Assembly: GCA_963727495.1 (NCBI GenBank)
Contig: CAVSGQ010000014.1
Span: 351,051 to 415,050 of the forward strand
Length of the DNA: 64,000 nucleotides
Direction of reading: 5' to 3'
Source: an uncultured Actinomycetota bacterium
GTDB taxonomy: Bacteria > Actinomycetota > Actinomycetes > Mycobacteriales > Pseudonocardiaceae
In this document: one piece after another, positions 8,021 to 40,256 of the stretch
Numbering within the stretch: the stretch's first letter is position 1
Layout of the letters: each line of letters begins with the position of its first letter
Translations under genes and position numbers: made by a program
The notes under the pieces: model-generated
Databases searched by the model: none
The model's input: only the letters and a program-made list of their open reading frames with translations
Told to the model about the DNA's origin: nothing

Positions 8021-8030
8021 CGGTCCTCCT

Positions 8031-21715: not shown

Positions 21716-21791
21716 CTTTTCCCAGGAACTCGTTCCGCATCTTCAACTCGCGGTTCTCCCGCTCGAGCTCACGCAACCTGGCCCGCTCAGA

Positions 21792-23519
21792 CCCGATTCC
21801 GCGAGTAGTCGGTTGAGTTGATCTTATGGTTCGTGAGGTTGTCTGGTGGGGTGGGTTTCGTGGGCGTGGGCATGCCACAGGCCCGGGTGTGGCGCCGGGT
21901 TCGCGGGTCTCGGGGTTCCTGGGTCGGGGCTGGGGTGGCCGGGTGGTCAGGGCAGTGCGGGGAGTTTCCGGAGTCGGGCGAGGATCTCGGCGAGCAGGTG
22001 GTGACCGGGCGGTGGGTGCAGGATTGGTTGCCCTGATTGGAGAACGAGGCGGGCGGGGACGCGGATCAGCCGGTGGCGCAGGGTGGCGATCATGGCTTTG
22101 CCGTCGCGGGCGCCCCAGCCGGAGAGCTGTCCGGCTGGTCCGGGGGTGGCGGTGAGTTGGTGGAGCCAGGCGGCCATGCTGGCGGCCAGCAGCGCGCCCC
22201 ACATCCAGGCGGTGTTGACCTCGGGATAACCGGAGGGGAGGTGGCGGAGCGCGGCGCCGTGTTTGCTGTCGCGGAAGATGTTTTCGATGCTGGTGCGGTG
22301 TCGGTACCAGTGCTCAACTGGGCGGCTTTGTCCGGTGTGGACACGTCGGCCGGATCAACGAGGTTGGTGAGGATGAACGAGTAGCCGTAGATCGCGTCCG
22401 CGTCGGCCAACTCTTCGAGCGGGAGGGCGCGTTGGTCGGGGTGCAGGGTGCGGCGCCGCCGCGAGCGGGGATCGGCCGAGACCTGACAGATGTCGAGACG
22501 GACCCGGCGGATGAGCAGGAAGGTCTTGGCGGGCCACCAGACCGGCCGGTAGTCGGCGACGGCGACCTGCGCGCCGTCCATGTCGATCGCGTCGGTCCAG
22601 TCGTCCTCGGTGATGCCGTCGAGCAGCCGCCAGAGCGGGGCGATGCGTTTGGCGCCGATCGCGAACTCCACGTCGGCGAAGAACGCGACCCGGGCCAGCT
22701 CACCGGCGAAGTAGCCGGCGTCGGCCCGTAACCGCACCCGACCCGCTCTGGCCTGTTCGGGTAACGCCGCGAGCGCACGCCGGAACAGTTCGGCGGCGTG
22801 TGCGCGTGGATCATCGTTACCCGACACCAACTCGCGCGGCCAGCACGGTCTCGACCTCGGCCCAGGACGCCACGTGCGCACGTCCCACCCGCTGCCCCTC
22901 ATGGTTGAAGGCGACACCGCGTTTCTTGCGCCCGTAGACCTCCACGTCGCTGGCGTCGAGATCGATCGTCGCCGCAGCGCACAACCGTGTCCGCCGCACC
23001 GCGGGCACCCGCTCCAGCATCCGCTCGTCACCTGCGCGACCCCGGTCTCCACCGCCGTCCATTGTGGATCGGTGAACCTGCGCGCCAGCCCAGCGGCCGT
23101 GGTCGAGGACAACCCCGGCACCGGCGTGATCACCTGCCCCGCCACATCGGCACGCTGGCGGTCCAGACCCGACCAGGAAGTCCTCCCCGGCCATCTGCGC
23201 CGCGGCCAGACCCGACCAACACCTCACCAGCGCCGAACCCACGAGTCACGCTGCTTGATCGGCCCCACCGCCGCATCCAACGCCGAGATCACACCCAGCC
23301 GCTCCACCAACTCCGTGACCGCCGCCATCCCCGACACCGACGTCAACGACGGGTCCGGCGCGCCGACCCGCACCTCCGGCCGTCCACCACGTAAACTACC
23401 CACCCGATAGGTGTCCTCTCCCGGGACTGATCACGTCGTCGCAAACGTCATCATCCCAGGCCAGAGCGGCACCTATCACCATCTCAGCAGCGTGTCACCG
23501 CCTTACTCGCGGATACGGG
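21792..23519 (-). mobile_element. IS1380-family element with frameshifted transposase
   Basis: IRs CCCGATTCCGCGAGTA / TACTCGCGGATACGGG; 5-bp target duplication TCAGA; motifs IDLDASDVEVYG, LRADAGYF and FAIGAKR. Confidence 0.9.
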
Positions 23520-23770
23520 TCAGAAACCGACAGCGGCTCCTCCTCGACCGGATGCGCCTTACGATACGAAGCGACCCAATTCCCCAATGTTCCCGCGTTG
23601 ATCCCCAACTCCCGAGCGACCTGCGCGACCGGACGATTCCCCTCAATCACCATCTTGACCGCTTCGTCCCGAAACTCGGGAGAAAACTTCCTACGCCGTT
23701 CCGGCATCGATCATCCTCCATTCCAGACCGGACCTTATTAGGTCCACTGTCCGGAAAGTTGGAGGCGCGC

Positions 23771-25546
23771 CACAACGAGTGGGACGCTGCGGCTGGTGTG
23801 TCGCGGACGAAGGTGCTGTACTCCTTCGGCCGTGAGGACACCGTCGATGTTGAGGGCGTCCGCCGGTTGATCGGGGCGTTGACCCGGTTGCTGGACCCGG
23901 CTGACGCGTTGGCTGGTGGCGGTCCGGCCGGGTTGACCTTCACCGAGTCCCGACCGCTGGGTGGGGCGTTCGTGCTGGACGGGTTGTGGCGACGGTTGGG
24001 CATCGACGCGGCGATACGGCGGATGCTCGCCGGGCGCCGGCAGGGGGAGCGGGTCGAGCGGATCTTGTTCGCGTTGGTCGCCAACCGGGCGCTGGCGCCG
24101 TCCTCGAAGCTGGCCGCGACCCGCTGGATTGAGCACGACGTGGTGATCGACGGGCTGGACACCGTGGTCGATGAGGCCTGCTATCGGGCGATGGACTGGC
24201 TGATCGAGGTGGCCCCAGCGTTGTCGCGCGCGGTGTATGACAACGTCGCTGATCTGCTGAACCTGGAAGTGGACCTGCTGTTCTTCGATACCACCAGCAC
24301 CTACTTCGAACTCGACGAACCCGACGAGCCGGTCGACCGCGACGAACACGGCGCCCGCACCGACAACAACGACGACAGCCAGGACGGCGGCAACAGCGAC
24401 GGTAAGCCCGCTGGGTTTCGGACCTACGGCAAGTCCAAGGACTCCCGCCCGGATCTGCCGCAGGTCGTCATCGGGATGGCGGTGACCCGCGACGGTATCC
24501 CCGTCAGATGTTGGTGCTGGCCCGGCAACACCGGCGACTCGGCGTTGATCCGCCAAGTCAAGGACGACATGCGGGACTGGTCGTTGGGCCGGGTCGTGTG
24601 GGTCGCCGACCGCGGCTTCACCTCCGCGGCCAACCGCAGATACCTGCAGCGCGCCGGCGGGCACTACATCCTCGGGGAGAAGCTGCGCGGCGACTCCGAC
24701 GAGGCGAAGGCAGCGCTGGCCCGGCAAGGCCGCTACAAGACCGTCGCTGGGAACCTGCAAGTCAAGGAAGTCAATCTGGACAAGGATTTGGCCGACGATC
24801 GGTTCGTGATCTGCTTCAACCCCGAGGCCGCCCAACGCGACACCAAGGTCAGGCAACGGATGCTGGCCCAACTCGACGAGGCGATCGCCGGATCGGACAA
24901 GCTCTCCACCGACAAGCGCGCCGAGCTTCGCGGTGCGCTCTCCACCAAGCCCGGTCTCAAACGCTACCTACGCGTCACGCCAGGCGGACTGCTACGCATC
25001 GACCGCAAGGCCATCGAGCGTGAGACCAACCTCGACGGGAAGTTCCTGCTGCGCTGCTCGGATCCGAAACTGTCCAGTGAGGACATCGCCTTGGGCTACA
25101 AGCAACTGCTGGAGGTCGAACGCGGTTGGCGAGACATGAAGCAGATCATCGATCTGCGGCCGGTCTACCACCGCCGTGAGGAACGCATCCGGGCTCACGT
25201 CCTGCTGTGTTGGCTGGCGCTGCTGCTGATCCGGATCGCCGAGACCGCCACCGGACAGACCTGGCCCTCAATGCGCGACGAACTACAACGCCTGCACCTG
25301 GGCACCTTCACCGGCCCAGCCGGCACCTTCCAGCAACGAACCGAGATCACCCCCGCCCAACGCAAGATCCTCGCCGCCCTCGTCCTCGAGGAACCCCGCC
25401 GCGTCCACGAAGCAACTCCCGCAACACGCTGACCAGCACCAACACCACCGCCTAGTGACACGCCCCGTCACCGGGCAATCATGTATATCCCCAGGTCAAC
25501 CCACCAATTCACGGACTAGCCAACACCCTGATCTGTGGAACCCAGG
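23771..25546 (+). mobile_element. IS1634-family element copy 1 (5' end removed by the IS3 insertion; transposase frame open 23771-25432)
   Basis: LFFDTTSTYF, GKSKDSRPDLPQ, VWVADRGF and LRPVYHR motifs; right end GTGGAACCCAGG at 25546. N-terminal MYVKASTRK..QLA is missing relative to copy 2. Confidence 0.92.
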
Positions 25547-25861
25547 TTGAGGGCGAGCGAGGAATGCAACCCCGAAGTGAGTTCGACCAGCGAGCAGGTG
25601 CCTGATCCGGAGGTTGTGCCGAGGGCGCGGTCGCGGCGGTATTCCGCGTCGTACAGGGCGAGGATCCTGGCTGAGTACGAGGAGCTGGACGAGGCGGGTA
25701 AGGGTGGCTTGTTGCGGCGGGAGGGTCTGTACACGTCGTTGATCTCGGCGTGGCTTGACCAGCAGGACCGTGGTGCGCGGGAGGCGTTGGCCAAGCCGGC
25801 CGGGAGTCTGCAGCAAGGGCCGGGGGTGTGCGCACCAGCGGCCTGGCCTTCGATGCACTGA
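25546..25861 (+). pseudogene. IS3-family OrfA fragment
   Basis: PEVVPRARSRRYSASYRARILAEYEELDEAGKGGLLRREGLY. Confidence 0.75.
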
Positions 25862-26271
25862 CCGACAACACGTGAGGGCGCAGCGGGTGAACAGCTGCTG
25901 TGTCCAGTGGGCGACGATGAGCCGCCGCGGCGAGGACGTGGTCGTGCGGGCGGGTCCACGGACCCGCCCGCACGGCCTGCCCGGCCACGCTGGGCCGCCT
26001 GCTCAACACCGCCATGGAACCGTCCACACCCCGGGCCGTAACGGCACCATCGCCGCGTCGACGACAAGCGCGCCGCGTGCGTCAACCAGGTGATCTGGGC
26101 TCCGATCCTGCTCGTTCCAGACGAAGCCGCCGGCTTCCGACCCAAGATCGCTGGTGGAGCGGCGGGGCCATGGCCCGGTTGGCATCCCGGCAGTCACGCC
26201 GTGAACGGATATCAGCCGACATGGACGGTGTTCGGGCCAGCCGCTCGCGAATCGACTTGAGTACCGGTCAG

Positions 26272-26697
26272 TCAGACTCCGTCCCAGTCGCCGGGCACGA
26301 GATAGGCATCCGATGGCGGATTGGCGTTGATCAGCCTGCCGCCCGCATACGGACCATCAGCACCATGAATCTGCAACCCGCCCACCCGGGTCACCCACGC
26401 AACCGTGTCCGTGCCGTCGCCGTTCCAGTCACCGGCGACCAGCACCTCGTCGGCGTTCGGCGTGGCATGAATCAGCACGCCACCCGCATACGGACCATCG
26501 CTCGCATGAATCTGCAGACCACCCTGCCGGGTCACCCACGCCACCGTGTCATCACCGTCACCGTCCCAGTCGCCCGGCAGCAGATAAGCATCCGACGGCG
26601 GACTCGCGTTGATCAACCGACCGCCCGCATACGGACCATCGCTCGCGTGGATCTGCAGACCGCCCTGCCGGGTCACCCACGCGACGGTGTCGCTGCC
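26272..26697 (-). repeat. Three ~138-bp coding repeats (A-B-C units)
   Basis: DTVAWVTRxGGLQIHxxDGPYAGGxLIxAxPxxDxxLxxGDWxGDG units, DNA nearly identical to those in the upstream gene. Confidence 0.95.
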
Positions 26698-27291
26698 GCC
26701 GCTGCAGTTGCGGCTGGCGACGTTGCGCCACTCGCCGCCGGCGCCGGGACCGTAGGTCACGCCGTTGAACACGGCCGCGACCCGCTCGGCGCCCTCGAAA
26801 CCCCAGGAGGCGCTGCCGTCGCCGTTGCTGTCGAAGCCCTGCTCGTAATGCAGGTGAGGCACGCCGTTGGAGGTCGGCCCGGTGTGCCCCACCCGGCCGA
26901 TCAGCTGTCCCCGCACGACCAGTGTGCCGACCGACACGGCCCGGGACTGCAGGTGGAGGTAGGTGGTGAAGTAGCCGCCACCGTGATCGATCTGGATGAC
27001 GTTGCCGGCGTTGGCGTGCACAAAGGACTGGTTCACCCGCCCGGCTGCTGGCGCGACCACCGGCGAACCCTCGGTGTCGCTCTGCGGCTCACGCACCATG
27101 TCCAGTGCCGGTGCGTGGGTGGAGTCCCAGGTGTTCAGTCGCCATTGCTGTCCACAGGGGAAGGGCAGCTGGAACGCCGGTGCGGCCGAGGCGGAGCCCG
27201 CGGACGCGACCAGGCCGCCCGCGACGAGGATCGCCGCGGTGACGGCGCCTACCATCGATCTGGCCCTTCCGGAAAGACGTCTACTGTTCAT
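26272..27291 (-). CDS. Secreted M23 family peptidase with three C-terminal FG-GAP/VCBS-like repeats
   Basis: Signal peptide ending ASA; FQLPFPCG, HAPALD (HxxxD) and YLHL (HxH); GDWDGDG/GDWNGDG repeats. Confidence 0.88.
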   Translation of the reverse strand: MNSRRLSGRARSMVGAVTAAILVAGGLVASAGSASAAPAFQLPFPCGQQWRLNTWDSTHAPALDMVREPQSDTEGSPVVAPAAGRVNQSFVHANAGNVIQIDHGGGYFTTYLHLQSRAVSVGTLVVRGQLIGRVGHTGPTSNGVPHLHYEQGFDSNGDGSASWGFEGAERVAAVFNGVTYGPGAGGEWRNVASRNCSGGSDTVAWVTRQGGLQIHASDGPYAGGRLINASPPSDAYLLPGDWDGDGDDTVAWVTRQGGLQIHASDGPYAGGVLIHATPNADEVLVAGDWNGDGTDTVAWVTRVGGLQIHGADGPYAGGRLINANPPSDAYLVPGDWDGV

Positions 27292-27326
27292 CAGAGTTCC
27301 CTTTCTGACACGCAAGCGGGTCGAAG

Positions 27327-28030
27327 TCAGCTGCCGTCCCAGTCGCCGGCGATCAAGTAGGCATCGGATGCGGGGTTGGGGTCGATCAGGCGACCGCCGG
27401 CGTAGGGGCCGTCGCTTGCGTGGATTTGCAGGCCCCCTTGCCGGGTCACCCAGGCGACCGTGTCGTCGCCGTCACCGTCCCAGTCGCCGGGCACGAGATA
27501 GGCATCCGATGGCGGATTGGCGTTGATCAGCCTGCCGCCCGCATACGGACCATCAGCACCATGAATCTGCAACCCGCCCACCCGGGTCACCCACGCAACC
27601 GTGTCCGTGCCGTCGCCGTTCCAGTCACCGGCGACCAGCACCTCGTCGGCGTTCGGCGTGGCATGAATCAGCACGCCACCCGCATACGGACCATCGCTCG
27701 CATGAATCTGCAGACCACCCTGCCGGGTCACCCACGCCACCGTGTCATCACCGTCACCGTCCCAGTCGCCCGGCAGCAGATAAGCATCCGACGGCGGATT
27801 GGCGTTGATCAGCCTGCCGCCCGCATACGGACCATCAGCACCATGAATCTGCAACCCGCCCACCCGGGTCACCCACGCAACCGTGTCCGTGCCGTCGCCG
27901 TTCCAGTCACCGGCGACCAGCACCTCGTCGGCGTTCGGCGTGGCATGAATCAGCACGCCACCCGCATACGGACCATCGCTCGCATGAATCTGCAGACCAC
28001 CCTGCCGGGTCACCCACGCCACCGTGTCGC
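27327..28030 (-). repeat. Five ~138-bp coding repeats including a near-perfect 276-bp tandem duplication
   Basis: Segments ~27490-27765 and ~27766-28030 are nearly identical. Confidence 0.95.
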
Positions 28031-28652
28031 TGCCACTGCTCCACAATCTCGACACGAGAAGCTGTGCATCGTGCTCCTCCCGGCCGTACGCGTCCGGCAC
28101 CGCCGAGCGCTGGACGGCCTGGCAGATCGCGCCGATGGAGCCGCTCATCCAGGAGTTGTTCGGATAGATCCGCAGCATCGCGTTCAGGAACGCATTGGTC
28201 GCATACACCGGATCGGTGATCTGTGCGGGAGTCCCCCAGCCTTGTGACGGCCGCTGCTGGAACAGCCCCAGGCTGTCGTGGTCCACGGCCTCGGTGTAGT
28301 TGTGCAGGGTGCTCTCGGTGATCGCGGTCGTCGTCGCGATCACCGCCGCCCGCTGGTTCAGCCCCCGGCCTCGCACGGTGTTCACGATCGTCCGGGCGCA
28401 GGACACGTTGTATGCACTGACCTGCTGGCCCAGCCGAGGCCCGTTCATTTTCGGTCGGACACGGTCCGCGACCGCGGCATCGGCAGCCGTCGGTCCACCC
28501 TGGACACATTGACCAGTAGCGATCAATGCGCCGAGGGACGGCGGCACCGGAGCCCCGCCCGGCCCCGGAACCGCCGGGCCGGCGACGGCCGGTGCGGCGA
28601 AGACCGCTAACGCCGCTGCCGAGTTCAGAAGAATGAAAAGACGTCTCATCAC
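27327..28652 (-). CDS. Secreted lysozyme/lytic-transglycosylase-like protein with five FG-GAP/VCBS-like repeats
   Basis: Signal peptide; AITESTLHN...DHDSLGLFQQRPSQGWG motif typical of actinobacterial lysozyme-like domains; same repeats as the neighbouring gene. Confidence 0.75.
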   Translation of the reverse strand: MMRRLFILLNSAAALAVFAAPAVAGPAVPGPGGAPVPPSLGALIATGQCVQGGPTAADAAVADRVRPKMNGPRLGQQVSAYNVSCARTIVNTVRGRGLNQRAAVIATTTAITESTLHNYTEAVDHDSLGLFQQRPSQGWGTPAQITDPVYATNAFLNAMLRIYPNNSWMSGSIGAICQAVQRSAVPDAYGREEHDAQLLVSRLWSSGSDTVAWVTRQGGLQIHASDGPYAGGVLIHATPNADEVLVAGDWNGDGTDTVAWVTRVGGLQIHGADGPYAGGRLINANPPSDAYLLPGDWDGDGDDTVAWVTRQGGLQIHASDGPYAGGVLIHATPNADEVLVAGDWNGDGTDTVAWVTRVGGLQIHGADGPYAGGRLINANPPSDAYLVPGDWDGDGDDTVAWVTRQGGLQIHASDGPYAGGRLIDPNPASDAYLIAGDWDGS

Positions 28653-28666
28653 GGCTCGCCGCGGCT

Positions 28667-29062
28667 TCAGTTGTAGACGCTGGACGCGGACGGGCAGATG
28701 TTCAGCCAGTGCTGCGTGTCGTTGACGAGAGCTGTGTTGTGGTCCTGGATCGCGGTGCGATGAATGGCATTGACGTCCAGCCGCATCGCGTGTCCGGTGT
28801 TCGGGCCGACGATACCGTCGACCGAGAGGTTGCCCTTCCGCGACTGGTAGGTCTTCACGCCATTTCTGGTGCCGCTACCGAAGATGCTGTCCTCGGAACC
28901 GCCGATGCCGATTCCGAAGTACGTGTGCACGACGTGCTGGGCGCACCACACGGGCACCCCGCGGTCCCCGTAGTCGACGTCGGCAGATGCCGCCGACACG
29001 GACAGCCCGACTGCCGCGAACGCGGTGGCGGCCACGACGCCGATTCTCAGTGCGTTTCTCAT
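28667..29062 (-). CDS. Small secreted peptidoglycan-binding domain protein
   Basis: Signal peptide ending ASA; DSIFGSGTRNGVKTYQ...LSVDGIVGPNT (PG_binding_1 pattern). Confidence 0.8.
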   Translation of the reverse strand: MRNALRIGVVAATAFAAVGLSVSAASADVDYGDRGVPVWCAQHVVHTYFGIGIGGSEDSIFGSGTRNGVKTYQSRKGNLSVDGIVGPNTGHAMRLDVNAIHRTAIQDHNTALVNDTQHWLNICPSASSVYN

Positions 29063-29137
29063 GGTCGAGTTCCTCCCTGTTCGGTCGCCCCGATGCGGGC
29101 GTGTGCGCACTGTCTGGCACCCGATGGAGGCGTAGCT

Positions 29138-29161
29138 GGATTCCGACCGATCCCGAACGCC
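29138..29161. promoter_or_regulatory. Shared upstream motif, copy 1
   Basis: GGATTCCGACCGATCCCGAACGCC, 76 bp upstream of the peptidoglycan-protein cluster; matches 32758-32782. Confidence 0.5.
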
Positions 29162-29474
29162 CGGTGAAGGTCACTGACGCAGCCGCGAATCTCGTCGGCG
29201 TCTTGCATGCTGAGGTGGACGTCGAGGTCAAGGGCGGCGCTCACCGCGTCCACCGGCTGACCAGATCAGGGCACCCATCCGACAGGGCGCATGTGGTCGC
29301 GGTCGATCCGACGACGCGTTTGCTCTCATCGCCGCGGTTGCGGGCGGTGGCGTAGCGAGGTCCCAGCGGTCCTTTCCGGCGCCCAGAACAGGTCAACACC
29401 CGGCAGTCACGCCGGAACAGATGTCAGCCGTCATGGACGGACTGGTCTGGCGGGCGGGTGGGGGTGGGAATGGG

Positions 29475-30083
29475 TTATAGCCAGCCGCGCTCGTCGGCCA
29501 CTCGCAGGGCTTCTATCCGGTTGCGGGTGCCGGTCTTGGTGGTGGCGCCGGACAGGTAGTTCCGCACGGTGCCCTCGGCCAGGTACAGCCGAGAGGCGAT
29601 CTCGGCGACGGTGGCGCTGGAACGGACCGCGATGAGCACGTCACGTTCGCGGGCAGTGAGCGGCGACTGGCCTGCCGCCAGTGTGGCCGCGGCCAGCGCC
29701 GGATCCACCACCCGCTCGCCGGCCATCACCCGCCGGATTGCGTCAGCGAGTGTGTGAGCCGGGGCGTCCTTCACGACGAACCCGACGGCGCCTGTCTCCA
29801 TGGCTCGGCGTAGGTAGCCGGTACGGCCGAAGGTGGTCAGGACGACCACTTTGCAGTCGGGCACTTGCGCGGTGAGCACCGCAGCCGCCGCGAGGCCGTC
29901 CAACCCGGGCATGTCGATGTCCAGCAGCGCGACGTCCGGGCGGTGTTGCAGCGCCGCGCCGGTAACCTCGTCGCCGCGGCCGACCGACGCCACCACCTCG
30001 AAGTCCGGTTCGAGGTCGAGCAGGGCGCGCAGCGCCTGTCGGATCAGCTCCTGGTCGTCGGCGAGCAGCAGGCGGATCGTCAT
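29475..30083 (-). CDS. NarL/LuxR family response regulator (DesR-like)
   Basis: MTIRLLLADD, LLDIDMPGLDG, LTTFGRTGY and a LuxR HTH; ATGA overlap with the kinase. Confidence 0.93.
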   Translation of the reverse strand: MTIRLLLADDQELIRQALRALLDLEPDFEVVASVGRGDEVTGAALQHRPDVALLDIDMPGLDGLAAAAVLTAQVPDCKVVVLTTFGRTGYLRRAMETGAVGFVVKDAPAHTLADAIRRVMAGERVVDPALAAATLAAGQSPLTARERDVLIAVRSSATVAEIASRLYLAEGTVRNYLSGATTKTGTRNRIEALRVADERGWL

Positions 30084-31225
30084 GCTGACGCCTCCACCCG
30101 CAGTGACCAGCCGCAGGGCCGCGTGGGGCCGGCGGTCAGCACCGCACCGGCCGCGGTCACCCTGGCGCGCAGACCGTCCAGCCCGGATCCCGCACCGGCC
30201 GGACCGCCAACCCCGTCGTCGCGCACCTCCACGAAGGACGCGGCCAGCTCCACGGTGCACCGGCTGGCCCGCGCGTGCCGCACCACGTTCGTCAACCCTT
30301 CCCGGACAACCCAGCCGAACAGTTCCTGCCGCTCCGGCGGCACCCCGTCGTAGGCGGTGGGCAGGTCCGCGACGACCCCCGCCGCCCGCAGCAGCTCCCG
30401 GCCCCGGGCGAGCTCGCCGGCGAGTGTGACATCCCGGTACCCGGACACCGCAGCCCGCACGTCGGCCAGCGCCTGACGGGACAGCTGCTCCACCGATTCC
30501 ATCTCGGCCAGCGCCGCAGGAGGTGCGCCGACGGCCAACCTTCGAGCCAGGGTGCTCTTCACCGTGATGGCGGTGAGCGAGTGGCCAAGCAGGTCGTGCA
30601 GATCGCGGGCGATCCGGTTGCGTTCAGCCTCGGCGGACAGACTGGCCACCTCCGCCCTCGCCTCGCGCAGCTGCTGGTTGGCGGTAGCGGTGCGGCTGAA
30701 GGCGTGGACCAACAGCGCGGTGAACACCACGGCCACCGCGAAATACCAGTTCGGGCCGGTACTCCAGCCAGGCACCGTCATCGGCACCACGACACACGCG
30801 GTGGCGCCCAGAACCACCAGAGACGCCGCCGTCCGGGCCTCGACGCGCGCCGCTGCCGACGGCACGATCACCGCGGCAAGGATCAGCACGTTCTCGTGGG
30901 CCAGCGGCGCGACCAGCACGGCCAGCACCGTCATCACCGCCAGCAGCCACCAGTAGACCCGCCACCCCGATCGCATCGAGGCCACCACCATGGCCAGGTA
31001 GCAGGCAGAGATCGCCACCAACAGCACGTAGCCAACGACGAGGCCGGCGCCACGCGCGTACTGGGTGACACCCGCGGCCGCCAGGAACGGATAGCAGAGC
31101 ATGCCCAGTGAGAGCAGCAGCCGGCGCCGCTCGTCCAGGCCGCGCAGTTCCGCGGACGCCCGCCCGTCATCCACATCGGTGACCGTACCGCCAGCCGAGC
31201 GGACCTGCGCGGACGCTGTGATCAC
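30080..31225 (-). CDS. Membrane sensor histidine kinase (DesK-like, HisKA_3)
   Basis: Multiple TM segments, ERNRIARDLHDLLGHSL, REGLTNVVRH and DDGVG; GTGA overlap with the upstream gene. Confidence 0.92.
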   Translation of the reverse strand: MITASAQVRSAGGTVTDVDDGRASAELRGLDERRRLLLSLGMLCYPFLAAAGVTQYARGAGLVVGYVLLVAISACYLAMVVASMRSGWRVYWWLLAVMTVLAVLVAPLAHENVLILAAVIVPSAAARVEARTAASLVVLGATACVVVPMTVPGWSTGPNWYFAVAVVFTALLVHAFSRTATANQQLREARAEVASLSAEAERNRIARDLHDLLGHSLTAITVKSTLARRLAVGAPPAALAEMESVEQLSRQALADVRAAVSGYRDVTLAGELARGRELLRAAGVVADLPTAYDGVPPERQELFGWVVREGLTNVVRHARASRCTVELAASFVEVRDDGVGGPAGAGSGLDGLRARVTAAGAVLTAGPTRPCGWSLRVEASA

Positions 31226-31644
31226 CGGGCCGCGAAAGCGGTGCGCACGGACCGTGTGAGGGTCAGCAGGACAACGATGATCAGCAGCGCGCCGCACACC
31301 CCGTTCGCGATCTTGAACCAGACCGGAAAGGCGCCGGGAATCGATTCGATCACGACGATCGCCACCACCTGGGCCAGCGCGATGATCTGCACCCTGCGGT
31401 AGTTCCTCCGCGAGCCCCGGGCCATCGACACACCGATCGCGAAGGTGATCAGCGAGGCGACGGCGATGATCGAGCCGCGGATCCACACCGCATCGGTGAC
31501 CATGTCGGGGTCGCCGCTGAACACCACGATCGCCAACAGTGTCAACACGCTCACCGCCGCGTAGCCGCCGAGCAGCACCCGGGCGACGTTCAGCCTCTCG
31601 CGGATATCAGGGTCGGTCACGGTCGCGCTGGTCTGCTTCGTCAT
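31222..31644 (-). CDS. Small membrane protein (four TM) heading the two-component operon
   Basis: 140-aa hydrophobic ORF translationally coupled to the kinase. Confidence 0.8.
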   Translation of the reverse strand: MTKQTSATVTDPDIRERLNVARVLLGGYAAVSVLTLLAIVVFSGDPDMVTDAVWIRGSIIAVASLITFAIGVSMARGSRRNYRRVQIIALAQVVAIVVIESIPGAFPVWFKIANGVCGALLIIVVLLTLTRSVRTAFAAR

Positions 31645-31704
31645 GCCCTCAATGCTGATCGCCCCGCGTTCCCGCTGGTAGCGACGCTGCCCACCACCTC
31701 ATCG

Positions 31705-31716
31705 TGACATCTGTCA
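31705..31716. promoter_or_regulatory. TGACA-N2-TGTCA inverted repeat, candidate response-regulator operator
   Basis: TGACATCTGTCA about 60 bp upstream of the operon start. Confidence 0.45.
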
Positions 31717-31847
31717 GAAACTGGACATCCGACGGACCACGCTGCCGCGTACGCGCAGCCGGCGTGACGATTCCGCGCACCGCGCAGACCCTCCAACGCC
31801 TGTCCGCTCCTGCCCGACGTTCGCCGCGGTGCCGGTGTGGATCGACA

Positions 31848-32467
31848 TCAGCGTGGGCCCGGCGGCGGGAACCGGCGGATGGCCACGCCGACGAGCCGGT
31901 CCCGCGGCACGAACCCGTAGTGTCGCGAGTCCCAGCTCGTCGGCCGGTTGTCGCCGAGCACGACCACGTGCCCGGGCGACACCACGAGAACAACGGCTAT
32001 GTCGTCAGCGGCGATGACCAGCACCGCCCCGGTCACCCCCGCGAGCACAGCGACCGCGAGCTCGCGCGCGGACTGGAGGTGCCCCGGCGCTAGCGCGCCG
32101 CCGGCGGCCAGACCGGCAAGCAACAGGTTGCGGACCACGTGCCCAGGTCCGAGCGGCGCGGCCGACCTGCCGAAGCAGCGGCACGGCGCGCGCCGCCCAC
32201 GCCGCAGTGCCATCGCGACGGCACCGGTGAAGCGAGCAGTAGCCCGTCGGCCAGCACGAAGCCAACGGTCGCGGTGGCGGGCACGGCGAGGAGGACGGCG
32301 ACAGCGCTCTCCGCCGCCACCGTGACCCCGAGCGGGGCGAGCCACCGGTCCTCCACCCCGGCGCGGGCCGGCAGCGACCGCAGAAAACCGCGGAAGTCTC
32401 GCAGCTTCGACACCGAGGAGACGGCGAAGACGACGAGAAGCACGGCACAACTCCGGACGAACTCCAT
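31848..32467 (-). pseudogene. MauE/DoxX-family membrane protein fused by deletion to the C-terminus of an S26 signal peptidase
   Basis: VFAVSSVSKLR, CRCFG and HVVRNLLL (MauE), then VVVLGDNRPTSWDSRHYG (S26 box); frameshift near 32235. Confidence 0.8.
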
Positions 32468-32529
32468 GTCACGCTCCAGCAGGGCCGGGCGGCGCCTCAC
32501 GGACGCCGCCCGGCGCGATCGGGACCGCC

Positions 32530-32693
32530 TCAGCAGGGGCCATGTAGGTCCATTCGCAGCCGCCAATCGGGCGGCAGAACCGCCACCACAGGCCTGGGCG
32601 GCCCTGTGCGTTGCACAAGTCCTTGCCCTGACACGCGGAAGCAGTGGTGCTGGGCACGATCTTCACGAGCACGCGGTCAATGAATCGGCTCAT
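32530..32693 (-). CDS. Cys-rich secreted peptide precursor
   Basis: Leader MSRFIDRVLVKIVPSTTASA then core CQGKDLCNAQGRPGLWWRFCRPIGGCEWTYM. It ends at 32530 (..MGPC*) if one G is missing, otherwise it reads to 32469. Confidence 0.7.
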
Positions 32694-32790: not shown

Positions 32791-35700
32791 TCAGGACTCC
32801 GAAGGCGGCGTCGGAGGGTCGATGTTGTCGAGTAGGGTGCGGAGCTGGTTCGCCTCGGGCGCGCCGAGTTCGGTGTAGACGGTCAGAGCGAGCCGGTAGT
32901 GCTCGCGCGCACGGTCCGGATCGGCGAGCGCATGGTGGGCGTGGCCCAGCCCCGTATCGGCGCGGGCCAGCTGCTCGCGGACCCCGATGTCGGCGGCGAT
33001 CGCGCGGGCGGCACCGTGGTGGGCGAGGGCGTCAGCGGGGCACCCGGCCGCGAGCGCGGCCTCGCCGAGCCCGTTCCGCGCCCACGCCTCGCCGTGCCGG
33101 TAGCCGGTCTCGCGGAACAGGCGCAGCGCGTGCTGGTGGTGCTCGGCGGCCCGCCCGGGTTCGCCGAGCCGGGTGTGCAACAGTCCGAGACCGTCCAGGG
33201 CGTTGGCCTCACCGGTGCGGTTGCCGAGCTGCCGGAGATGGGTCAGGGCCTGGCGAAGGTGGTGGCCGGCCGGCTCGTACCAGCCCGCACGTGTCTCGAC
33301 GTCGGCCAGGTTGATCAGCGAGTATCCCTCGCTGTCCCGGTCACCGAGCCCACGAACCACGTCCAGCGCCTGCGCATAGTGCTCGGTGGCCGCCTCGTAG
33401 CGGCCCAGTCGCTTCTCGATGAAAGCGAGGTTGTTGAGCGAGCGGGCCTCCCCCGCCGGGTCGCCGGCCTTGCCGTACAGCCGCAAGGCTTGCGAGTAGT
33501 GCGCGGCGGCCGCGCCGTAGTGGCCCGTCTGCGCCTCGACGATGCCGAGATTGTTCACCGTGCGGGCTTCCCCGGCCGGGTCGCGGATCTGCCGGAACAG
33601 CTCAAGCGCCTGCCGGTAGTGCTCGGCCGCCGGCGCCGGCCGGCCGAGCCGCAGGTGCGCGGCGCCGAGGTCGGTCAGGGCGTGGGCCTGCCCCAACCGG
33701 TCGCCCGTTCTGCGGCCGGCGCGCAGGGCGTGGCCGTGCACGGCCATGGCGTCGGTGGGGTGGCCGCTGGTGAGGTAGCGGAACAGTGTGCGCGACAGCC
33801 GGACGGTGAGGTCGGGCCAACCGTGCGCTGCGGTGTGCCCGGCGATCGCGACCAGGGTGTGCCGTTCGGCGTCCAGCCAGGCGAGGGCGGTGTCCGGGTC
33901 GGCCAGGTCCGGCGCGGGGGCGGCGGCCGGTGCGATCTCGGGCCGGAGGTGGGCCTCGGCGGGATGCAGCGTGCTCATCGCGGCGGCGGCGGTCGCGAGA
34001 TAATGGTCGAACAGGCGAGTCAGCACGGCGTGCCGGTCCGCGGGGCGGTCTTCGTCGTGCGCGCGAATGGTGGCATACGCGCGGACGAGGTCGTGGAAGG
34101 TGTGCCGGCCTGGAATGCCTTGCTGCAGCAGGTGATCGCCGCACAGGTGGTTCAGGTGCGCTCGCGCCGTGTCGAGGTCGGTTCCGGCCAGCGCGGCGGC
34201 GGCGTAGGCGTCCACGTCGTGGCCGGGGTGCAGGGCGAGTAGTCGCAGCAGGCGGCGCCGGTCGGCGGGCAGGTGGTGATAGGACAGGTCCAGGGCGAGC
34301 TCGACGCCGGTGTCCAGGCGCCGGTCGCGGTGCCGTTCCTCGAGCCAGATGGCGTGGTCGGTCAGCGTCCAGCCGGGCTTGGCACGGATGTGCCCGGCCA
34401 CGAGCCCGAGCGCCAAGGGCAGATGGCCACACGCCTCGACGATCCGCGTCGGCGCCCCGGGGTCGTCACCTGCTGGGACCTCGCTTGCGGTGCGGGCCAG
34501 GAACGTCCGGCCCTCGTCCGTGGTGAACACGTCGATCGCCAGGCACGCCACCGGGTCGAGGTCACAGAGGCTGCGGCGGCTGGTCACCAGCACGGCGCAG
34601 CCCGCGGTGCCGGGGAGCAGCGGCCGGACCTGGTTTGCGTTCGCGGCGTTGTCGAGCACGATCAGCGCACTCATGCCGCCGACCCGGCGGCGGTAGAGCG
34701 CTGCCCGGGCGTCCAGGTCGTGCGGGATGCGGTGCCCGGCAACGCCCAGCAGGCGCAGGAAGGCGTCGAGGACGGCGGCCGGGTCGGCGGGCGGCTGTGC
34801 CGGATCGGGATGGAAGCCACGCAGGTTGACGAACAGGACGCGGTCGAACGGCCGTTCCCGGTCGAGCATGTGCGCGGCGTGAATCGCGAGCTGGGTCTTG
34901 CCGACCCCGGCCATGCCTTCGATCACGGAGATCACCGCGCGCGCGCCGGCCTGCTGAGCGCCGGCGAGGGCGCGGCGCAAGCGTTCCAGCTCGGGGGCGC
35001 GGCCGGTGAACGTCGCCAGGTCCGGCGGCAGCGTGTCCTGCACCCGGACCTGCCCTGCCGCGGCGCTCTCGCCGCCGATCACCTGCAGCGCCTGCCGCCA
35101 CTGCGCGACGTAGCCCACATCTGGATGAAGCGCCTGGACCACGGCGATGACGAGGTCCGTGCTCAGCCGCCGCCGGCCGAGCCGGAAGGAGTCGACCACG
35201 GTGGTCTTCCCCACCATCTCACCGGCGGACCGGCCCGCCATGGCCCAGGTCGCGTTGACGCGGTCCTTGATGGTCTCGTAGGACGGGCTGCCGGCCCAAA
35301 CCTTCAACGATCGCAACCGTTCGACCAATCCGTCCACAGTGGTCGCCTGACCCGGGTCGGGCGGCGGTGTGGGAGCCGGCCGCTCCGCACCGGTATGCGT
35401 GCCCCGGGGAATGAGCAGCCGCAGATGCTCCGCCGGGAGGGTGGACAGCAGCGCCGGGTCGGCCAACCATGCCTCCAGCGGCGCCCGCCTGCCGAGGACG
35501 CCCTGTGGCTGCTCGCTGTTCCACCGGCGCACCCAGTCGAGCAGCGCGGCCGTGAACGCCTCGTACGTCATCGGCGGCGAGCACTCGAAGCTGCTCCTCG
35601 CGGCGCGGGCCACCGCTCGCGCCTGCGTCAGCGGTGTGGCCACCACGTCCACGGCCAGGGCTCCGAGCGCGGCCCGGATCGCGGTGCGCAGCTCGTCGTC

Positions 35701-36366
35701 GCTCGGCTCGGTGTGGACCGCCAACGGCAGCCCGCCCGGCGGGCCGTAGGGTTCGGTCATGCTGATCGCCGCGCGAAGCGCGGCGAGGACCGGCTCACGG
35801 CCGGGCGGTCCCGGGCTGACCACGGTGCCGCACACCGCATGGCTCGCGCGGTCGACGAACCACGTGATCCACGGGCGGACCGGCCCCCCGCCGGTGCCGA
35901 CCTCGAGGGGTGCGGCCAGCCGGGCCGCCTCCCAGACGACGTTGCGGCACATCGCCGGCAGCCGCCGACCGCCCTCGCCGCGCAGCCGTGGCCGCACCGC
36001 CGGTGTCACGTCCCGGGCCAGTGCGCGCCGCAACGTCGCCATGCTCGGCGACGGCGGTCCGCCCGCCGCGGCGACGGCCGCCAGCTCCCGGTGCAGGGCA
36101 GAAACGTTGCCCCGCAAGTCCGCCAGCCGCCGCCGTATCGCGTCGTCGACGCGGAACCGGTCGCGGATCCCGGCGGTGACCTGCCCGGTGACACGGGCGC
36201 GGTTCAGCCACCGCCGCACGGTCCGCTCTGTCACGCCGACGCTCCCGGCCACCAGGCGCACCTGCGCCCGAGTCAGCCGCCCGGCCGTCTCGAGCTCCAG
36301 GAGCCGACGAACCGCGGCTTCGCGCCACCGCCGCGAAGCCGCCACCTCATTCGAAACCTCAGTCAC
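32791..36366 (-). CDS. Fusion of a degenerate TnsB/Mu-type transposase with XRE-HTH, NB-ARC and TPR domains
   Basis: Uninterrupted frame. N-terminal HTH and RPWITWFVD/PYGPPGGLP/WVRRWN transposase motifs, then LKVWAGSPSY HTH, GMAGVGKT, IVLDN, FHDLVRAYA and many TPRs. Likely start GTG 36366 after a TAGATT -10-like box. Confidence 0.8.
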   Translation of the reverse strand: MTEVSNEVAASRRWREAAVRRLLELETAGRLTRAQVRLVAGSVGVTERTVRRWLNRARVTGQVTAGIRDRFRVDDAIRRRLADLRGNVSALHRELAAVAAAGGPPSPSMATLRRALARDVTPAVRPRLRGEGGRRLPAMCRNVVWEAARLAAPLEVGTGGGPVRPWITWFVDRASHAVCGTVVSPGPPGREPVLAALRAAISMTEPYGPPGGLPLAVHTEPSDDELRTAIRAALGALAVDVVATPLTQARAVARAARSSFECSPPMTYEAFTAALLDWVRRWNSEQPQGVLGRRAPLEAWLADPALLSTLPAEHLRLLIPRGTHTGAERPAPTPPPDPGQATTVDGLVERLRSLKVWAGSPSYETIKDRVNATWAMAGRSAGEMVGKTTVVDSFRLGRRRLSTDLVIAVVQALHPDVGYVAQWRQALQVIGGESAAAGQVRVQDTLPPDLATFTGRAPELERLRRALAGAQQAGARAVISVIEGMAGVGKTQLAIHAAHMLDRERPFDRVLFVNLRGFHPDPAQPPADPAAVLDAFLRLLGVAGHRIPHDLDARAALYRRRVGGMSALIVLDNAANANQVRPLLPGTAGCAVLVTSRRSLCDLDPVACLAIDVFTTDEGRTFLARTASEVPAGDDPGAPTRIVEACGHLPLALGLVAGHIRAKPGWTLTDHAIWLEERHRDRRLDTGVELALDLSYHHLPADRRRLLRLLALHPGHDVDAYAAAALAGTDLDTARAHLNHLCGDHLLQQGIPGRHTFHDLVRAYATIRAHDEDRPADRHAVLTRLFDHYLATAAAAMSTLHPAEAHLRPEIAPAAAPAPDLADPDTALAWLDAERHTLVAIAGHTAAHGWPDLTVRLSRTLFRYLTSGHPTDAMAVHGHALRAGRRTGDRLGQAHALTDLGAAHLRLGRPAPAAEHYRQALELFRQIRDPAGEARTVNNLGIVEAQTGHYGAAAAHYSQALRLYGKAGDPAGEARSLNNLAFIEKRLGRYEAATEHYAQALDVVRGLGDRDSEGYSLINLADVETRAGWYEPAGHHLRQALTHLRQLGNRTGEANALDGLGLLHTRLGEPGRAAEHHQHALRLFRETGYRHGEAWARNGLGEAALAAGCPADALAHHGAARAIAADIGVREQLARADTGLGHAHHALADPDRAREHYRLALTVYTELGAPEANQLRTLLDNIDPPTPPSES

Positions 36367-36400
36367 GGTCGCCAGTGAATCTACCCCAGCACGGCCAGCG

Positions 36401-36455
36401 GACACGAGATGAGAAATCGGCGACACCTGCTGAGAACCCGATCAGATTGGGAGAA
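36401..36455. repeat. GACAC-N4-TGAGAA direct repeats (candidate transposon-end/TnsB sites)
   Basis: Copies at 36401-36415 and 36422-36436 (21-bp period), plus a degenerate third copy at 36440-36455. Confidence 0.55.
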
Positions 36456-36499
36456 GCGCCGCGACCGGGTCTCGCCCGACCGGGCGGCCACGACGCTCA

Positions 36500-37581
36500 A
36501 GGCACAGCCGTGCCGGTACCGCCGCAGCTCGCGGAGCTGCGCAAGGTGGCCGGCGAAACCGGCCTGGTGCTGCTTTCCCTGGGCGGCGACGACATCGGCT
36601 TCGCCGACATCGTCGCCGCCTGCGCGAAACCCCGGCAACTGCGACCCGTTCACCGCCGAGCTCACCGACCGGTTGGACTCCCTGGCCCGACGGCTACCCA
36701 ATGCCTACCGCGCCGTCGACGCCGTGGTGAACGGCCGCGACGCGCTCGCCGCCCGGGACGGCAGGGCCGCACCGATCATCGTGCTCGGCTACCCGTCCCT
36801 GGTCAGCATCCAGGACGTCGGCAAGTGCCCCTACCTGTCCCGCACCGACGCCGACCGCGGCGACCAACTCGTCCGCCGGCTCGACGGCGTGCTCGCCGAC
36901 GCCGCGACCGCGGCCCGCGAGGGTGGCGCACCGGTGTACTTCGCCGAAGACCTCCTGGACGCGTTCCGGCCGGACCACACGCTCTGCTCGCCGGACCGCT
37001 ACGTGGTGCCGATCAACCTGCTCGGCACCCTCGACGGCGCCACGAAACAGCAGATGATGCACCCCACCGAGCGCGGCTACCAGGCACTCACCGGCGCACT
37101 CGTGCGCTGGTCGAACCGCGAGCAGCCCGAGGTCGGCGCCCGCGGCGAGGCGGCGGCGGTCCGCATCGAGAACGTCGGTGAACCCGTCGCCGCCCGCAGC
37201 GACCACGTCCGCGGCGAGACGGTCAGCGTGCGTGCCGGCGGGTTCGCGCCGGGCAGCCCGGTGGTGCTGGACCTGCGCTCGCTGCCCCGCGCGCTGGCCA
37301 CCGGAATCGCCGCCCCGGACGACACCGTCGACCTCGTGGCCGTCCTCCCGTCCGACACCCCGACCGGCCGGCACGACCTCGTCGTGTCCGGAGTAGACGA
37401 TTCGCAAAGGCCGCACCGGGTGGCCACTACGATCGACATCCGCGGCACCACACATTGGTGGATGCACGGCCTGCTCGGCACGGCCGGCGCATGCGTCCTC
37501 TTCACCGGGGTGAGCCGGCTCAACCTCCAGCGCCTGCGCCGCACCACCGAACCCCGACAACCCCGGGCTGTTCGACGCTAG
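36500..37581 (+). pseudogene. SGNH/GDSL hydrolase, 5'-truncated and frameshifted, with C-terminal membrane anchor
   Basis: LLSLGGDDIGFADIVAAC, IIVLGYP and MHPTERGY (SGNH blocks III and V); the GDS block is absent. Confidence 0.75.
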
Positions 37582-38367: not shown

Positions 38368-40256
38368 GTAAGCATTCACGTGCTTGATCGTGGGCATGAC
38401 GTGTCCACGGTGGATGTGGTGATGTCCGTGGGCGGTGTCCGGGCTTCAGGCGGGTGCGGGGCGGGGTGGTCGCCACGGGTTTCCGAGGACAGCCCGGCGG
38501 AGCGCGGTCATGACGTTGATGCCCTGTTTGCGGGCGGTGTCGATGTAGCTGCGGATGTCGAGTCGGTCTTGGGTGACGGTTTCGCTGGTGAGTCGCCCGG
38601 AGATCTTCTGCTGGGTTTTGGTGGGTCGCAGGTCGCGTTCGCTGATGTTGTTGGTGGGCCAGATCCGGGTGTCGGTGGTGAAGCGCAGGACGTCGGCCTC
38701 GCGGGTACGGCAGAACTCCAGCAGCTCGCGTCCGGGGCGCTGCGCGGTGGAGTGGCGCGGCCCCGGCACCCGGGGCACCCGTGACAGACCGACCCGCACC
38801 GCGCGGCGAAACTCCAGGGACAGCTCGTCGCGGACCTGTTCGGCGATGGCGGGCAACCCGGCGTCACGGGCGGCATGCCAGGCGGTGATCAGGCCGCGCA
38901 GCGCACGCTGCGCTTGGGCGGGCCACTGCGCTTCGGGGTAGGTCTCGGCAGCGTCGGCGAAATCCCTGAGTAGGTGAGCTGCGCAGGCCTGATGCCCGGT
39001 GAGGGTGTCCCAGCGGGGGTGGAAGTAGTTGGCGTAGCGGTCATGCACCGCGATACCCGCAAACGAGGGGAGGATGCCGAATTCAGCGAACGAGTCCAGG
39101 TCCCGACCAGCCAGGTGGTAGGCGGTGGCATCCTCGGTCGACGCGGACAGCACGTACTTCTTGCTCCCTGCCGGCCCGCAGCGCAGCGTGGTCTCGTCGA
39201 AACCCACGACGTGCGCCAGCGCGATCAACGTCTTGATCGCGGCGACGACCTGCGCGACCGCGACCGCGCACCGAGTGAGCATGCCGTGCACGAACCCGTC
39301 CGACGGTCCGGTCCCACCGGTCAGGTCGGCGATCAACTGCACACACCGCTGCACCGGAACGTGTTGGTAGACCAACAGATAGACGGTCAGCGACTTCAGA
39401 TTCACCCCGTAGCTCGACGGTGCCGTCGACACCTCGTCCGGCAGTTGGCCGACGTGTTCGGCGCCGCAGCCGCAGCGGACCCGATACACATCGTGCTGCC
39501 ACACCGTGATCGCCACCTCGGGCAGGTCATGAACCTGATGGGAACGCTCGACACCCACATCGTGTGCCGCGGCCAGGTCCGCCCCGCATCCACAGCAACC
39601 ATGCGGACGGTGCGGCACCCACTCATCCGGCACGGCCACCCACGGCAGCGCGTTACCCCGGGCGCCTTTCTGCTTGCCCCGCTGGCGTCCAGAACCCTTC
39701 GCCCGCTTCGACGCCGGCATGCTCTTACCTGGAAGGTCATCAGCCGACGGCGGCATCGAGGAGTTCCCACTGTTACGCGAGACCTGACGCTCCAACCGCC
39801 GCACACGCTCCTCCAACGCGGCGTTCGCCTCACGCAACCCCACGATGAGCGCAATCATCTCCTCGCGCGACAACTCCTCCAACCCGGACACAGCCCAAGA
39901 TCCCCGTCCCACGCCGGTCGTAACCCGGACACCGCCGCAGGCAACGCGAACACCGCCCCCGCCGCCCCGCCCTGACCCGCACTCGCAGGATCAGGTCCCA
40001 CTGACCGTCCTCACCGGAGATCTCCCGAGAGGTCGACTCGACCACCGTGTCCTGGACCCCGAGCAGGTCCCGTAATAGTCTCGTAGGGCGCACGCCGTCC
40101 CATCCATGATCGTTCCTGTGCTTCGCAACTCAGAAACGTAGACGGTCGCACGGCGTGCGCCCTAATCGATCATGAAACCCCGCCCACCCCAACGGCAGAA
40201 GGTCCCAACTGTCACGCACCGACACGCACAAGATCAACCACCACGTGAATGCTTAC
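38368..40256 (-). mobile_element. IS66-family element copy 2 (transposase 38446-39891 identical to copy 1) carrying an extra ISL3 5' fragment
   Basis: Same IRs as copy 1; 8-bp TSD ATCGCGGG; 1889 bp versus 1602 bp for copy 1. Confidence 0.95.
39905..40195 (-). pseudogene. ISL3 transposase N-terminal fragment inside IS66 copy 2
   Basis: MRPTRLLRDLLGVQDTVVES...GRCSRCLRRCPGYD zinc-finger start. Confidence 0.7.

Follow-up and report, generated by a model that had tools for sequence, protein, structure and literature searches.

A degenerate TnsB/MuA-type transposase part joined in frame to an AfsR-like NB-ARC/TPR protein in an uncultured actinobacterium

AfsR and the SARP-NB-ARC-TPR regulators of actinomycetes are built from a DNA-binding head, an ATPase switch and a C-terminal array of tetratricopeptide repeats (TPR) (structures 8k60/8jke; PMC10936776). 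The present study concerns a gene of an uncultured Actinomycetota bacterium of the Pseudonocardiaceae which shares this plan, and in which the N-terminal part of a transposase has become the beginning of an NB-ARC/TPR protein. The gene lies on the minus strand at 32791..36366 of a stretch of 64,000 nucleotides (here called the window; contig CAVSGQ010000014.1 of assembly GCA_963727495.1, positions 351,051 to 415,050 of the forward strand), the DNA of which is high-G+C actinobacterial (0.60-0.77). It is a real chimera: the transposase is cut off after its RNase H-like core and is joined, via 16 formerly non-coding codons, to an AfsR-type STAND protein.

The transposases TnsB (of Tn7 and of the type V-K and I-F CRISPR-associated transposons) and MuA carry, like the fused protein, two N-terminal helix-turn-helix (HTH) domains and an RNase H-like core, and in both of them the first HTH domain reads the repeats at the transposon ends. 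Mu repressor c and the truncated-transposase inhibitors are non-catalytic and re-use the end/operator-binding domain of the transposase on transposon DNA; the Mu repressor shares this domain with MuA. Unlike the case described here, where the domain stands on a 1191-aa host STAND protein, these inhibitors are small and are encoded by the element itself. Eukaryotes provide well-documented cases in which a transposase DNA-binding domain has been domesticated, among them nucleotide-binding leucine-rich repeat proteins (NLRs) of plants. We know of no description of such a domestication in bacterial STAND proteins, and a full-text literature search returned no account of a bacterial transposase-STAND fusion. 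The nearest plant example is given by the BED-NLRs, in which a zinc-finger BED domain derived from hAT transposases is integrated (PMC7761493). Like the fused protein, they carry a transposase-derived DNA-binding domain on the N-terminal side of the NB-ARC, and integration is recurrent in both; they differ from it in kingdom, in transposase superfamily and in the repeats (leucine-rich repeats against TPR); an immune role of the present protein is hypothetical. Avs and other bacterial NLR-related antiviral STAND NTPases (PMC13581612) likewise consist of a STAND NTPase, a C-terminal TPR-type sensor and a variable N-terminal module. In contrast to these, the fused protein has no PADLOC Avs match and no active effector, and its NB-ARC belongs to the branch of the AfsR regulator.

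Architecture of the fused gene

The minus-strand frame 32791..36426 is open over 1211 codons when counted from its first GTG (36426). The features of the gene are as follows.

32791..36366, minus strand: whole fused open reading frame (ORF), 1191 codons from the GTG at 36366, the extent also taken in the initial annotation; entry P0027 of a public protein library
36172..36324, minus strand: transposase-derived HTH1, residues 35-85; the sole transposase part common to all six fused loci; conserved family columns kept 10 of 10
35977..36171, minus strand: transposase-derived HTH2, residues 86-150; also retained in L009, L057 and P0006
35413..35976, minus strand: degenerate RNase H-like (DDE) core, residues 151-338; catalytic positions lost, two deletions
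35365..35412, minus strand: junction linker of 16 residues, IPRGTHTGAERPAPTP; non-coding-like, with a third-position G+C (GC3) of 0.69, and free of ATG, GTG and TTG
35062..35364, minus strand: native N-terminal helical domain, residues 355-455; opens with the invariant PDPGxA and is modelled as a five-helix bundle
34378..34947, minus strand: NB-ARC (PF00931, by Pfam), residues 494-683
34894-34917, minus strand: intact Walker A, GMAGVGKT, residues 504-511
34645-34665, minus strand: intact Walker B, LIVLDNA, residues 588-594
32857..33777, minus strand: C-terminal TPR array (TPR_12 x5, by Pfam), reaching to about residue 1190; presumed sensor

GC3 is 0.62 over residues 1-34, about 0.9 from about residue 35 to the stop codon and 0.69 over residues 339-354. 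Since coding-like values set in only at about residue 35, the GTG at residue 21 or 28 is probably used as the true start, and translation would then begin upstream of the transposase part. The initial annotation had described a transposase N-terminus, an NB-ARC and a TPR array in one uninterrupted frame. This is borne out, and it is reproduced in a second contig, an independently assembled Logan contig of 7450 nt which carries the identical gene together with both flanks and differs by a single 1-nt indel. At this site the window has one extra C (32747, in CTGC(C)GCTTTTTT), outside the ORF, 44 nt past the stop codon and adjacent to a T-run.

By sequence, profile and predicted fold, residues ~35-338 are a TnsB/MuA-family transposase part with two HTH domains and an RNase H-like core. 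They are 40-53% identical (E down to 2e-80) to 'Mu transposase C-terminal domain' transposases of 500-580 aa from Streptomyces, Kitasatospora and metagenomes, which carry PF09299 (Mu-transposase C) and rve. The profile of this family matches ShCAST TnsB (7svw) with E=3e-24, followed by the TnsB proteins of Tn6677, Pse and Tn7. A prediction of the RNase H fold, proposed in the initial annotation as a check, came out in its favour: the AlphaFold model of residues 21-360 (pLDDT 80) has TnsB, MuA, Tn7 TnsB and IstA as its top Foldseek matches. The model contains two N-terminal helical domains (pLDDT ~90) and, in the strands of residues 144-184 with their helices, an RNase H-like fold best matched by the cores of TnsB, MuA and IstA, the confidence for this core partly reflecting the intact relatives in the alignment. 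Residues 35-150 align with the family and keep 24 of its 27 conserved columns. The transposase motifs listed in the initial annotation are all present, among them PWITWFVD (185-192), PYGPPGGLP (226-234) and PLEAW (316-320).

All three DDE positions are lost, as had been proposed. The profile alignment places the family motifs WEaDH, vDrGkDF and KGtvE at D205, D287 and E321 of TnsB, which we take to be its catalytic triad. In the fused protein the first motif has become WEAAR (D168A, 35923-35925) and the second VHTEPSDDE (35692-35718), with the changes D240E, R241P, G242S and F245E, and the glutamate of the third has disappeared in a deletion of about 26 residues after residue 267. A further deletion of 7 aa lies after residue 156, before the first catalytic motif. 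A compensated frameshift was considered as the origin of the scrambled second-Asp motif and was ruled out, since the changes are in-frame point substitutions. The deletion of the Glu region may go back to two indels, of 10 and 68 nt, that enclose a short stretch read out of frame, in a part where the alignment is weak; the indels in the core add up to multiples of three. Homology to the family ends at residue 338, so that the whole C-terminal domain is missing; neither PF09299, which occupies about 346-400 in the relatives, nor the tail is found in the fused protein. Deprived of its DDE triad and of its C-terminal domain, the transposase can no longer cut or join DNA. The fused protein thus departs from TnsB and MuA in lacking the triad, the C-terminal domain, the tail and recognisable ends, and in being joined to a STAND protein; nor were the partner genes, for an AAA_22 ATPase and a TniQ-like protein, found near it.

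The linker leads directly into PPDPGQA, and no native start codon of the NB-ARC gene is left. As a result, the invariant PDPGxA motif can be translated only from a start upstream of residue 355. Unfused relatives, which are proteins of 800-900 aa from Micromonosporaceae and Pseudonocardiaceae, start some 10-15 residues before PDPGxA and continue with a domain of about 95 residues. The initial annotation had called the corresponding native domain of the fused protein an HTH. This label is plausible: the five-helix model is confident and one distant homologue matches HTH_31, which together suggest that the domain is probably an XRE/HTH_31-like DNA-binding domain. A fold search with the domain gave no informative match, the model being of low confidence at its flanks.

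An NB-ARC with intact Walker A and B motifs and a TPR array follow, as had been noted initially. The closest solved structure to the C-terminal 850 aa is that of the Streptomyces transcription activator AfsR (E=2e-73), with about 580 residues homologous to AfsR residues 274-857. The NCBIfam equivalog model of AfsR scored 381.7 bits against a cut-off of 1430, and that of HaaT, a TPR protein of cyclophane RiPPs (ribosomally synthesised and post-translationally modified peptides), 427 bits against 1125; no RiPP maturase was recognised near the fused gene. In a PADLOC search no defence STAND model matched, and hits were to generic TPR models only. Since AfsR is the closest solved structure and no known defence STAND model matches, the term 'NLR-like' of the initial annotation is better replaced by AfsR-like. 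The likeness has its limits. The score lies far below the AfsR equivalog cut-off, and the SARP part of AfsR (an OmpR-type winged helix with BTAD) is absent, neither Trans_reg_C nor BTAD being found by Pfam; in its place the head consists of the PDPG-motif domain, two transposase HTHs and a dead DDE core.

Related fusions and constraint on the captured domains

A search for the same domain architecture in other genomes, suggested in the initial annotation, found the fusion to be rare but not unique. Protein and genome searches revealed five further loci in which the N-terminus of a transposase of this family continues, at the PDPG start, into an NB-ARC protein of the same subclade.

L058/P0033: HTH1 kept; NB-ARC 70.6% identical to that of the window, the closest of all; one in-frame stop
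L009: HTH1 and HTH2 kept; intact 974-aa ORF on the complete chromosome of Actinoplanes sp. CA-142083
L057/P0205: HTH1 and HTH2 kept; same junction as L009; +1 frameshift and truncation
L054/P0006: HTH1 and HTH2 kept; chimeric C-terminus
L002/P0017: HTH1 kept; cut by an insertion sequence (IS) and an inversion

The core is absent from all five. Because these rare relatives keep only HTH1, with or without HTH2, it is HTH1 and not the dead core that looks like the re-used part. Five of the six fusions are in frame. The intact fusion L009 is surrounded by ordinary TetR, MFS, ROK and ABC genes and has no transposon genes near it. No native start remains at its junction; P0006, P0017 and L058 have a Met at the usual native start position just before PDPG. 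Both L009 and L002 have a TetR gene upstream; synteny of the two loci on this ground was considered and ruled out, the similarity being that of a generic TetR_N only. At the P0017 locus the C-terminal TPR end of the gene (L002:5673-6048, minus strand) lies 2 kb upstream of, and on the strand opposite to, the part at 8001-8846 (plus strand), and behind the truncated 5' part comes an IS256-family fragment (Transposase_mut); the gene was split by an inversion associated with an IS.

A relative-rate test was made between the window protein and its closest intact relatives P0001, P0004 and P0003, with more distant family members as the outgroup. Changes specific to the window and to its sisters numbered 3:7 in HTH1, 8:0 in HTH2, 28:4 in core residues 151-265 and 18:6 in core residues 266-340. 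None of the 10 strongly conserved columns was lost in HTH1, against 13 of 43 in residues 151-265 and 6 of 21 in residues 266-340. It follows from these rates and column losses that HTH1 is as constrained as in working transposases, whereas the core is relaxed. Between L009 and L057 the ratio of nonsynonymous to synonymous substitution rates (dN/dS, or omega) is 0.29 on the captured HTHs (100 codons, dS 0.40) and 0.12 on the native domain. For the window and L058, where dS is near saturation, omega is 0.22 in HTH1, 0.25 in the native domain and 0.33 in NB-ARC, all these ratios coming from stretches of 46-100 codons. The amino acid identities of this pair are nearly equal (71.7% in HTH1, 72.2% in the native domain and 71.9% in NB-ARC), which fits co-divergence as one protein. 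Over these few codons, the captured HTH is under purifying selection.

These results divide two claims of the initial annotation. The proposed co-option of the transposase part as a DNA-binding module is supported by five other fusions, one of them intact in a complete genome, and by purifying selection on the HTHs; dN/dS, whose measurement on this part had also been suggested, is 0.2-0.3 on the captured HTHs, and the rate test found the core relaxed. The dead core as a maintained integrated decoy or sensor is not supported, for it evolves 4-7 times faster than its transposase relatives and is deleted in every other fused relative. A conserved integrated domain, as in an NLR with an integrated decoy, is not seen here, only HTH1 with or without HTH2 being conserved. 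The gene has the marks of a domesticated, putatively DNA-binding module: catalysis is lost, the HTH is retained under purifying selection, and L009 stands in a host-gene context.

Source transposon family and surroundings

In a neighbour-joining tree of the NB-ARC/TPR part, the window protein, L009 and L007 form one clade with 85% bootstrap support. The sister protein (L007:9323-12583, P0043, of Paractinoplanes rishiriensis) has an N-terminal extension of about 175 aa with two XRE-type HTHs, which sit where the window protein has its transposase part. From these two HTHs at the same position it appears that N-terminal gain of DNA-binding domains recurs in this clade. In trees of HTH1-HTH2 the fused sequences are not monophyletic. 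The window protein falls in a clade of 100% support with the intact transposases P0001, P0003 and P0004, whereas L009/L057 and P0006 fall in another clade (73%) with the transposase fragments P0139, P0208 and P0209, in which P0006 groups with P0139 and P0209 (88%), apart from L009. Because the fused N-termini nest in at least two different transposase clades, the trees, taken at face value, point to two or three separate captures of N-termini from this transposon family by a single NB-ARC subclade; as an alternative to repeated capture, resident transposons may have supplied the sequences by gene conversion. That the NB-ARC gene is a regular cargo or neighbour of the transposon family was considered and found unsupported, since the downstream genes of intact elements are others; near L027 and L060 there are NB-ARC genes, but these are distant paralogues.

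The transposon family also encodes, just upstream of its transposase, a protein of 417-450 aa in which a paralogue of HTH1-HTH2 precedes an AAA_22 (TniB/TnsC-like) ATPase (L030:8544-9797, P0225 and P0248). Further sites are the following.

L027:8602-8937: HTH1-HTH2-AAA_22 protein
L031:8613-8927: HTH1-HTH2-AAA_22 protein

It is unusual for an ATPase partner to share the end-binding domains of the transposase itself. This protein resembles the fused protein in having the same HTH pair (~42-48% identity) before an oligomerising P-loop NTPase, and so the pair already works naturally in that position; it differs in that its ATPase is AAA_22 and not NB-ARC, and in that it has no TPR. It was considered as the source of the L009-type N-termini and was ruled out by the tree, where its N-termini form a separate clade, which means that the fused proteins derive from transposases. 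Intact transposase copies of the family (L020/L021, L025/L026 and L030/L032) are located within 10-35 kb of both ends of linear Streptomyces and Kitasatospora chromosomes, a position which places them inside the terminal inverted repeats.

The neighbours of the fused gene in the window are as follows.

36440..37581, plus strand: GDSL/SGNH-like hydrolase pseudogene, divergent, 5'-truncated, with a frameshift near 36620
38446-39990, minus strand: IS66-family transposase (DDE_Tnp_IS66, DUF6444, zf-IS66)
23411-25432, plus strand: DDE_Tnp_1 (IS4-like) transposase of 673 aa
30080-32693, minus strand, directly downstream on the same strand: 74-aa ORF, MauE-like membrane ORF, 140-aa ORF and HisKA_3 sensor kinase

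The upstream ORF of 390 aa was considered as a conserved partner of the transposase and was ruled out, since tblastn found it only on the second contig of the window and it is a truncated, frameshifted GDSL-like hydrolase. Read through its frameshift, the pseudogene matches positions 54-178 only of the Lipase_GDSL_2 profile (E=2e-4); the first third of the hydrolase is missing, and the gap lies where the pseudogene meets the 5' end of the fused gene. The pseudogene lies at the border of the rearrangement or insertion through which the transposase arrived, and was destroyed by that insertion or by a later deletion. With this broken hydrolase and the IS66 and IS4-like elements nearby, the locus is rearrangement-prone, which fits the origin of a chimera as well as a neutral relic. 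In the downstream ORFs at 30080-32693 no known system was recognised; the MauE-like ORF overlaps a C-terminal fragment of signal peptidase I in another frame, which suggests another frameshifted gene. From 12000 to 32000 of the window the G+C is 0.61-0.68, against 0.71-0.77 in the first 12 kb, and few ORFs have a strong GC3 bias, a composition consistent with acquired or decaying DNA. A search of a plasmid collection gave no match, and a scan for promoters and terminators returned no sites.

Readings of the chimera

Taking together the architecture, the lost catalysis, the differential constraint, the related fusions and the selection on the HTHs, we favour, with a probability of about 0.5, the reading that the gene encodes a functional STAND switch of the AfsR-like kind, to whose DNA-binding head a captured HTH for transposon ends has been added; the dead core would be an in-frame spacer which is on its way to being lost. 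By analogy with AfsR, MalT and STAND biology, the TPR array would sense a ligand or a protein; the NB-ARC would then exchange ADP for ATP and oligomerise, as in AfsR and MalT, and the N-terminal HTHs, clustered in this way, are predicted to bind DNA. The captured HTH would add the sequence specificity of a transposon-end-binding domain, and on account of this specificity the likely targets would be repeats resembling TnsB sites. Speculatively, these could be the repeats of the cognate transposon family, in a role of repression or immunity, or relic copies wired to host genes, and the outcome could be control of the cognate transposon. The core would serve as a drifting in-frame spacer, already deleted in the relatives. 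The GC3 of the core (0.93), which equals that of the rest of the gene, counts for this reading.

Several observations weigh against it. A repeat search upstream of the gene found no end-like repeats, only GC-rich noise, and so did blastn of the upstream 400 nt against all the loci compared and a repeat search in the intact element L001, a weak test as the ends of this transposon family are not defined. Among ~15 billion proteins searched, the fusion with the core is found only once, P0027 being the sole member of its own cluster, and fusions of any form are few, six loci in total. Four of these six (L058, L057, L002 and L054) are damaged, and the region of the window is IS-rich and contains pseudogenes. 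The dN/dS values come from short stretches, as said above. Independent support for the contiguity of the junction comes from the Logan contig alone. In addition, a TTG at residue 321, with GGAGG 5 nt upstream of it, could be an internal start, and its product would be an NB-ARC protein without the transposase HTH.

The last points lead to the main rival, namely that the gene is a neutral relic. In this case a transposon insertion, or the end point of a deletion, would lie just upstream of an ordinary NB-ARC/TPR gene, the remnant would be in frame by chance and have no function, and the regulator would be translated from an internal start. In DNA of 73% G+C an open frame is by itself weak evidence: another frame of the same 1 kb runs over 323 codons with one stop, and antisense ORFs of 447 and 701 aa occur. 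The TTG at residue 321 would provide the internal start, and the Met at the native position in P0006, P0017 and L058 means that the native start may still be used there; the decay of the core, the four broken loci and the IS elements and pseudogenes around the gene also fit a relic. On the other hand, chance does not readily account for an HTH1 that is not accelerated while the core is (3:7 against 28:4), nor for omega values of 0.2-0.3 on the captured HTHs in two lineages. In-frame junctions in five of the six fusions, together with core indels that sum to multiples of three, speak in the same direction, as does the intact L009 in a normal chromosomal setting with a junction that leaves no native start. 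A start at residue 321 would give a leader of 35 residues, compared with ~12 in the unfused relatives. We consider the relic less likely than the reading above, although it has real points in its favour.

More doubtful is an immune sensor against mobile elements, similar to NLRs or Avs, in which the HTH would tether the STAND protein to transposon ends or the dead transposase would be a bait for transposition proteins, the integrated decoy included; the activated TPR/NB-ARC part would then stop transposition or set off a response. It is in keeping with this proposal that one NB-ARC subclade appears to have repeatedly captured N-termini from at least two transposase clades, that the HTH1-HTH2-AAA_22 protein of the element points to a module built to work with an oligomerising NTPase at transposon DNA, and that plant BED-NLRs are a precedent for transposase-derived DNA-binding domains in NLRs (PMC7761493). 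Yet no PADLOC model of a defence STAND protein matched, only generic TPR models did; there is no enzymatic effector domain, the only enzyme-like module being a DDE core without its triad; this core, the would-be bait, is not conserved and is deleted in relatives; the closest characterised relative, AfsR, is a transcription activator; and no defence genes were recognised near the fused gene. A bolder form of the same thought, which we hold to be similarly improbable, is that the STAND clade repeatedly and independently captured the TnsB-type end-binding HTH for host surveillance or immunity at transposon ends, where the switch would block or report transposition, and that the window gene is the missing link that still has the dead core.

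An assembly chimera, in which the junction near 35365-35412 would not be present in the organism, is very unlikely: the source appears to be a soil metagenome, a search with the 1-kb junction listed no run, and in the single soil-metagenome run matched by a 6-kb query the gene is not covered, but the separately built 7450-nt Logan contig has the identical gene and flanks with its one indel outside the ORF, and a junction of this kind recurs in related loci from other samples.

The set of genes described here is a series caught in the act, from a full dead core through HTH1 with HTH2 to HTH1 only. It displays how a modular STAND regulator gains a further DNA-binding head, drawn, as it appears, repeatedly from one transposon family. 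If the gene of the window is only a relic, it would still illustrate how GC-rich genomes generate long chimeric ORFs. If the surveillance reading is true, the protein would be a bacterial counterpart of the plant BED-NLRs. If the captured HTH of the AfsR-like switch still recognises transposon ends, a signal-sensing ATPase would be linked to mobile-element DNA, and this would bear on how the chromosome arms of actinomycetes control their many transposons.

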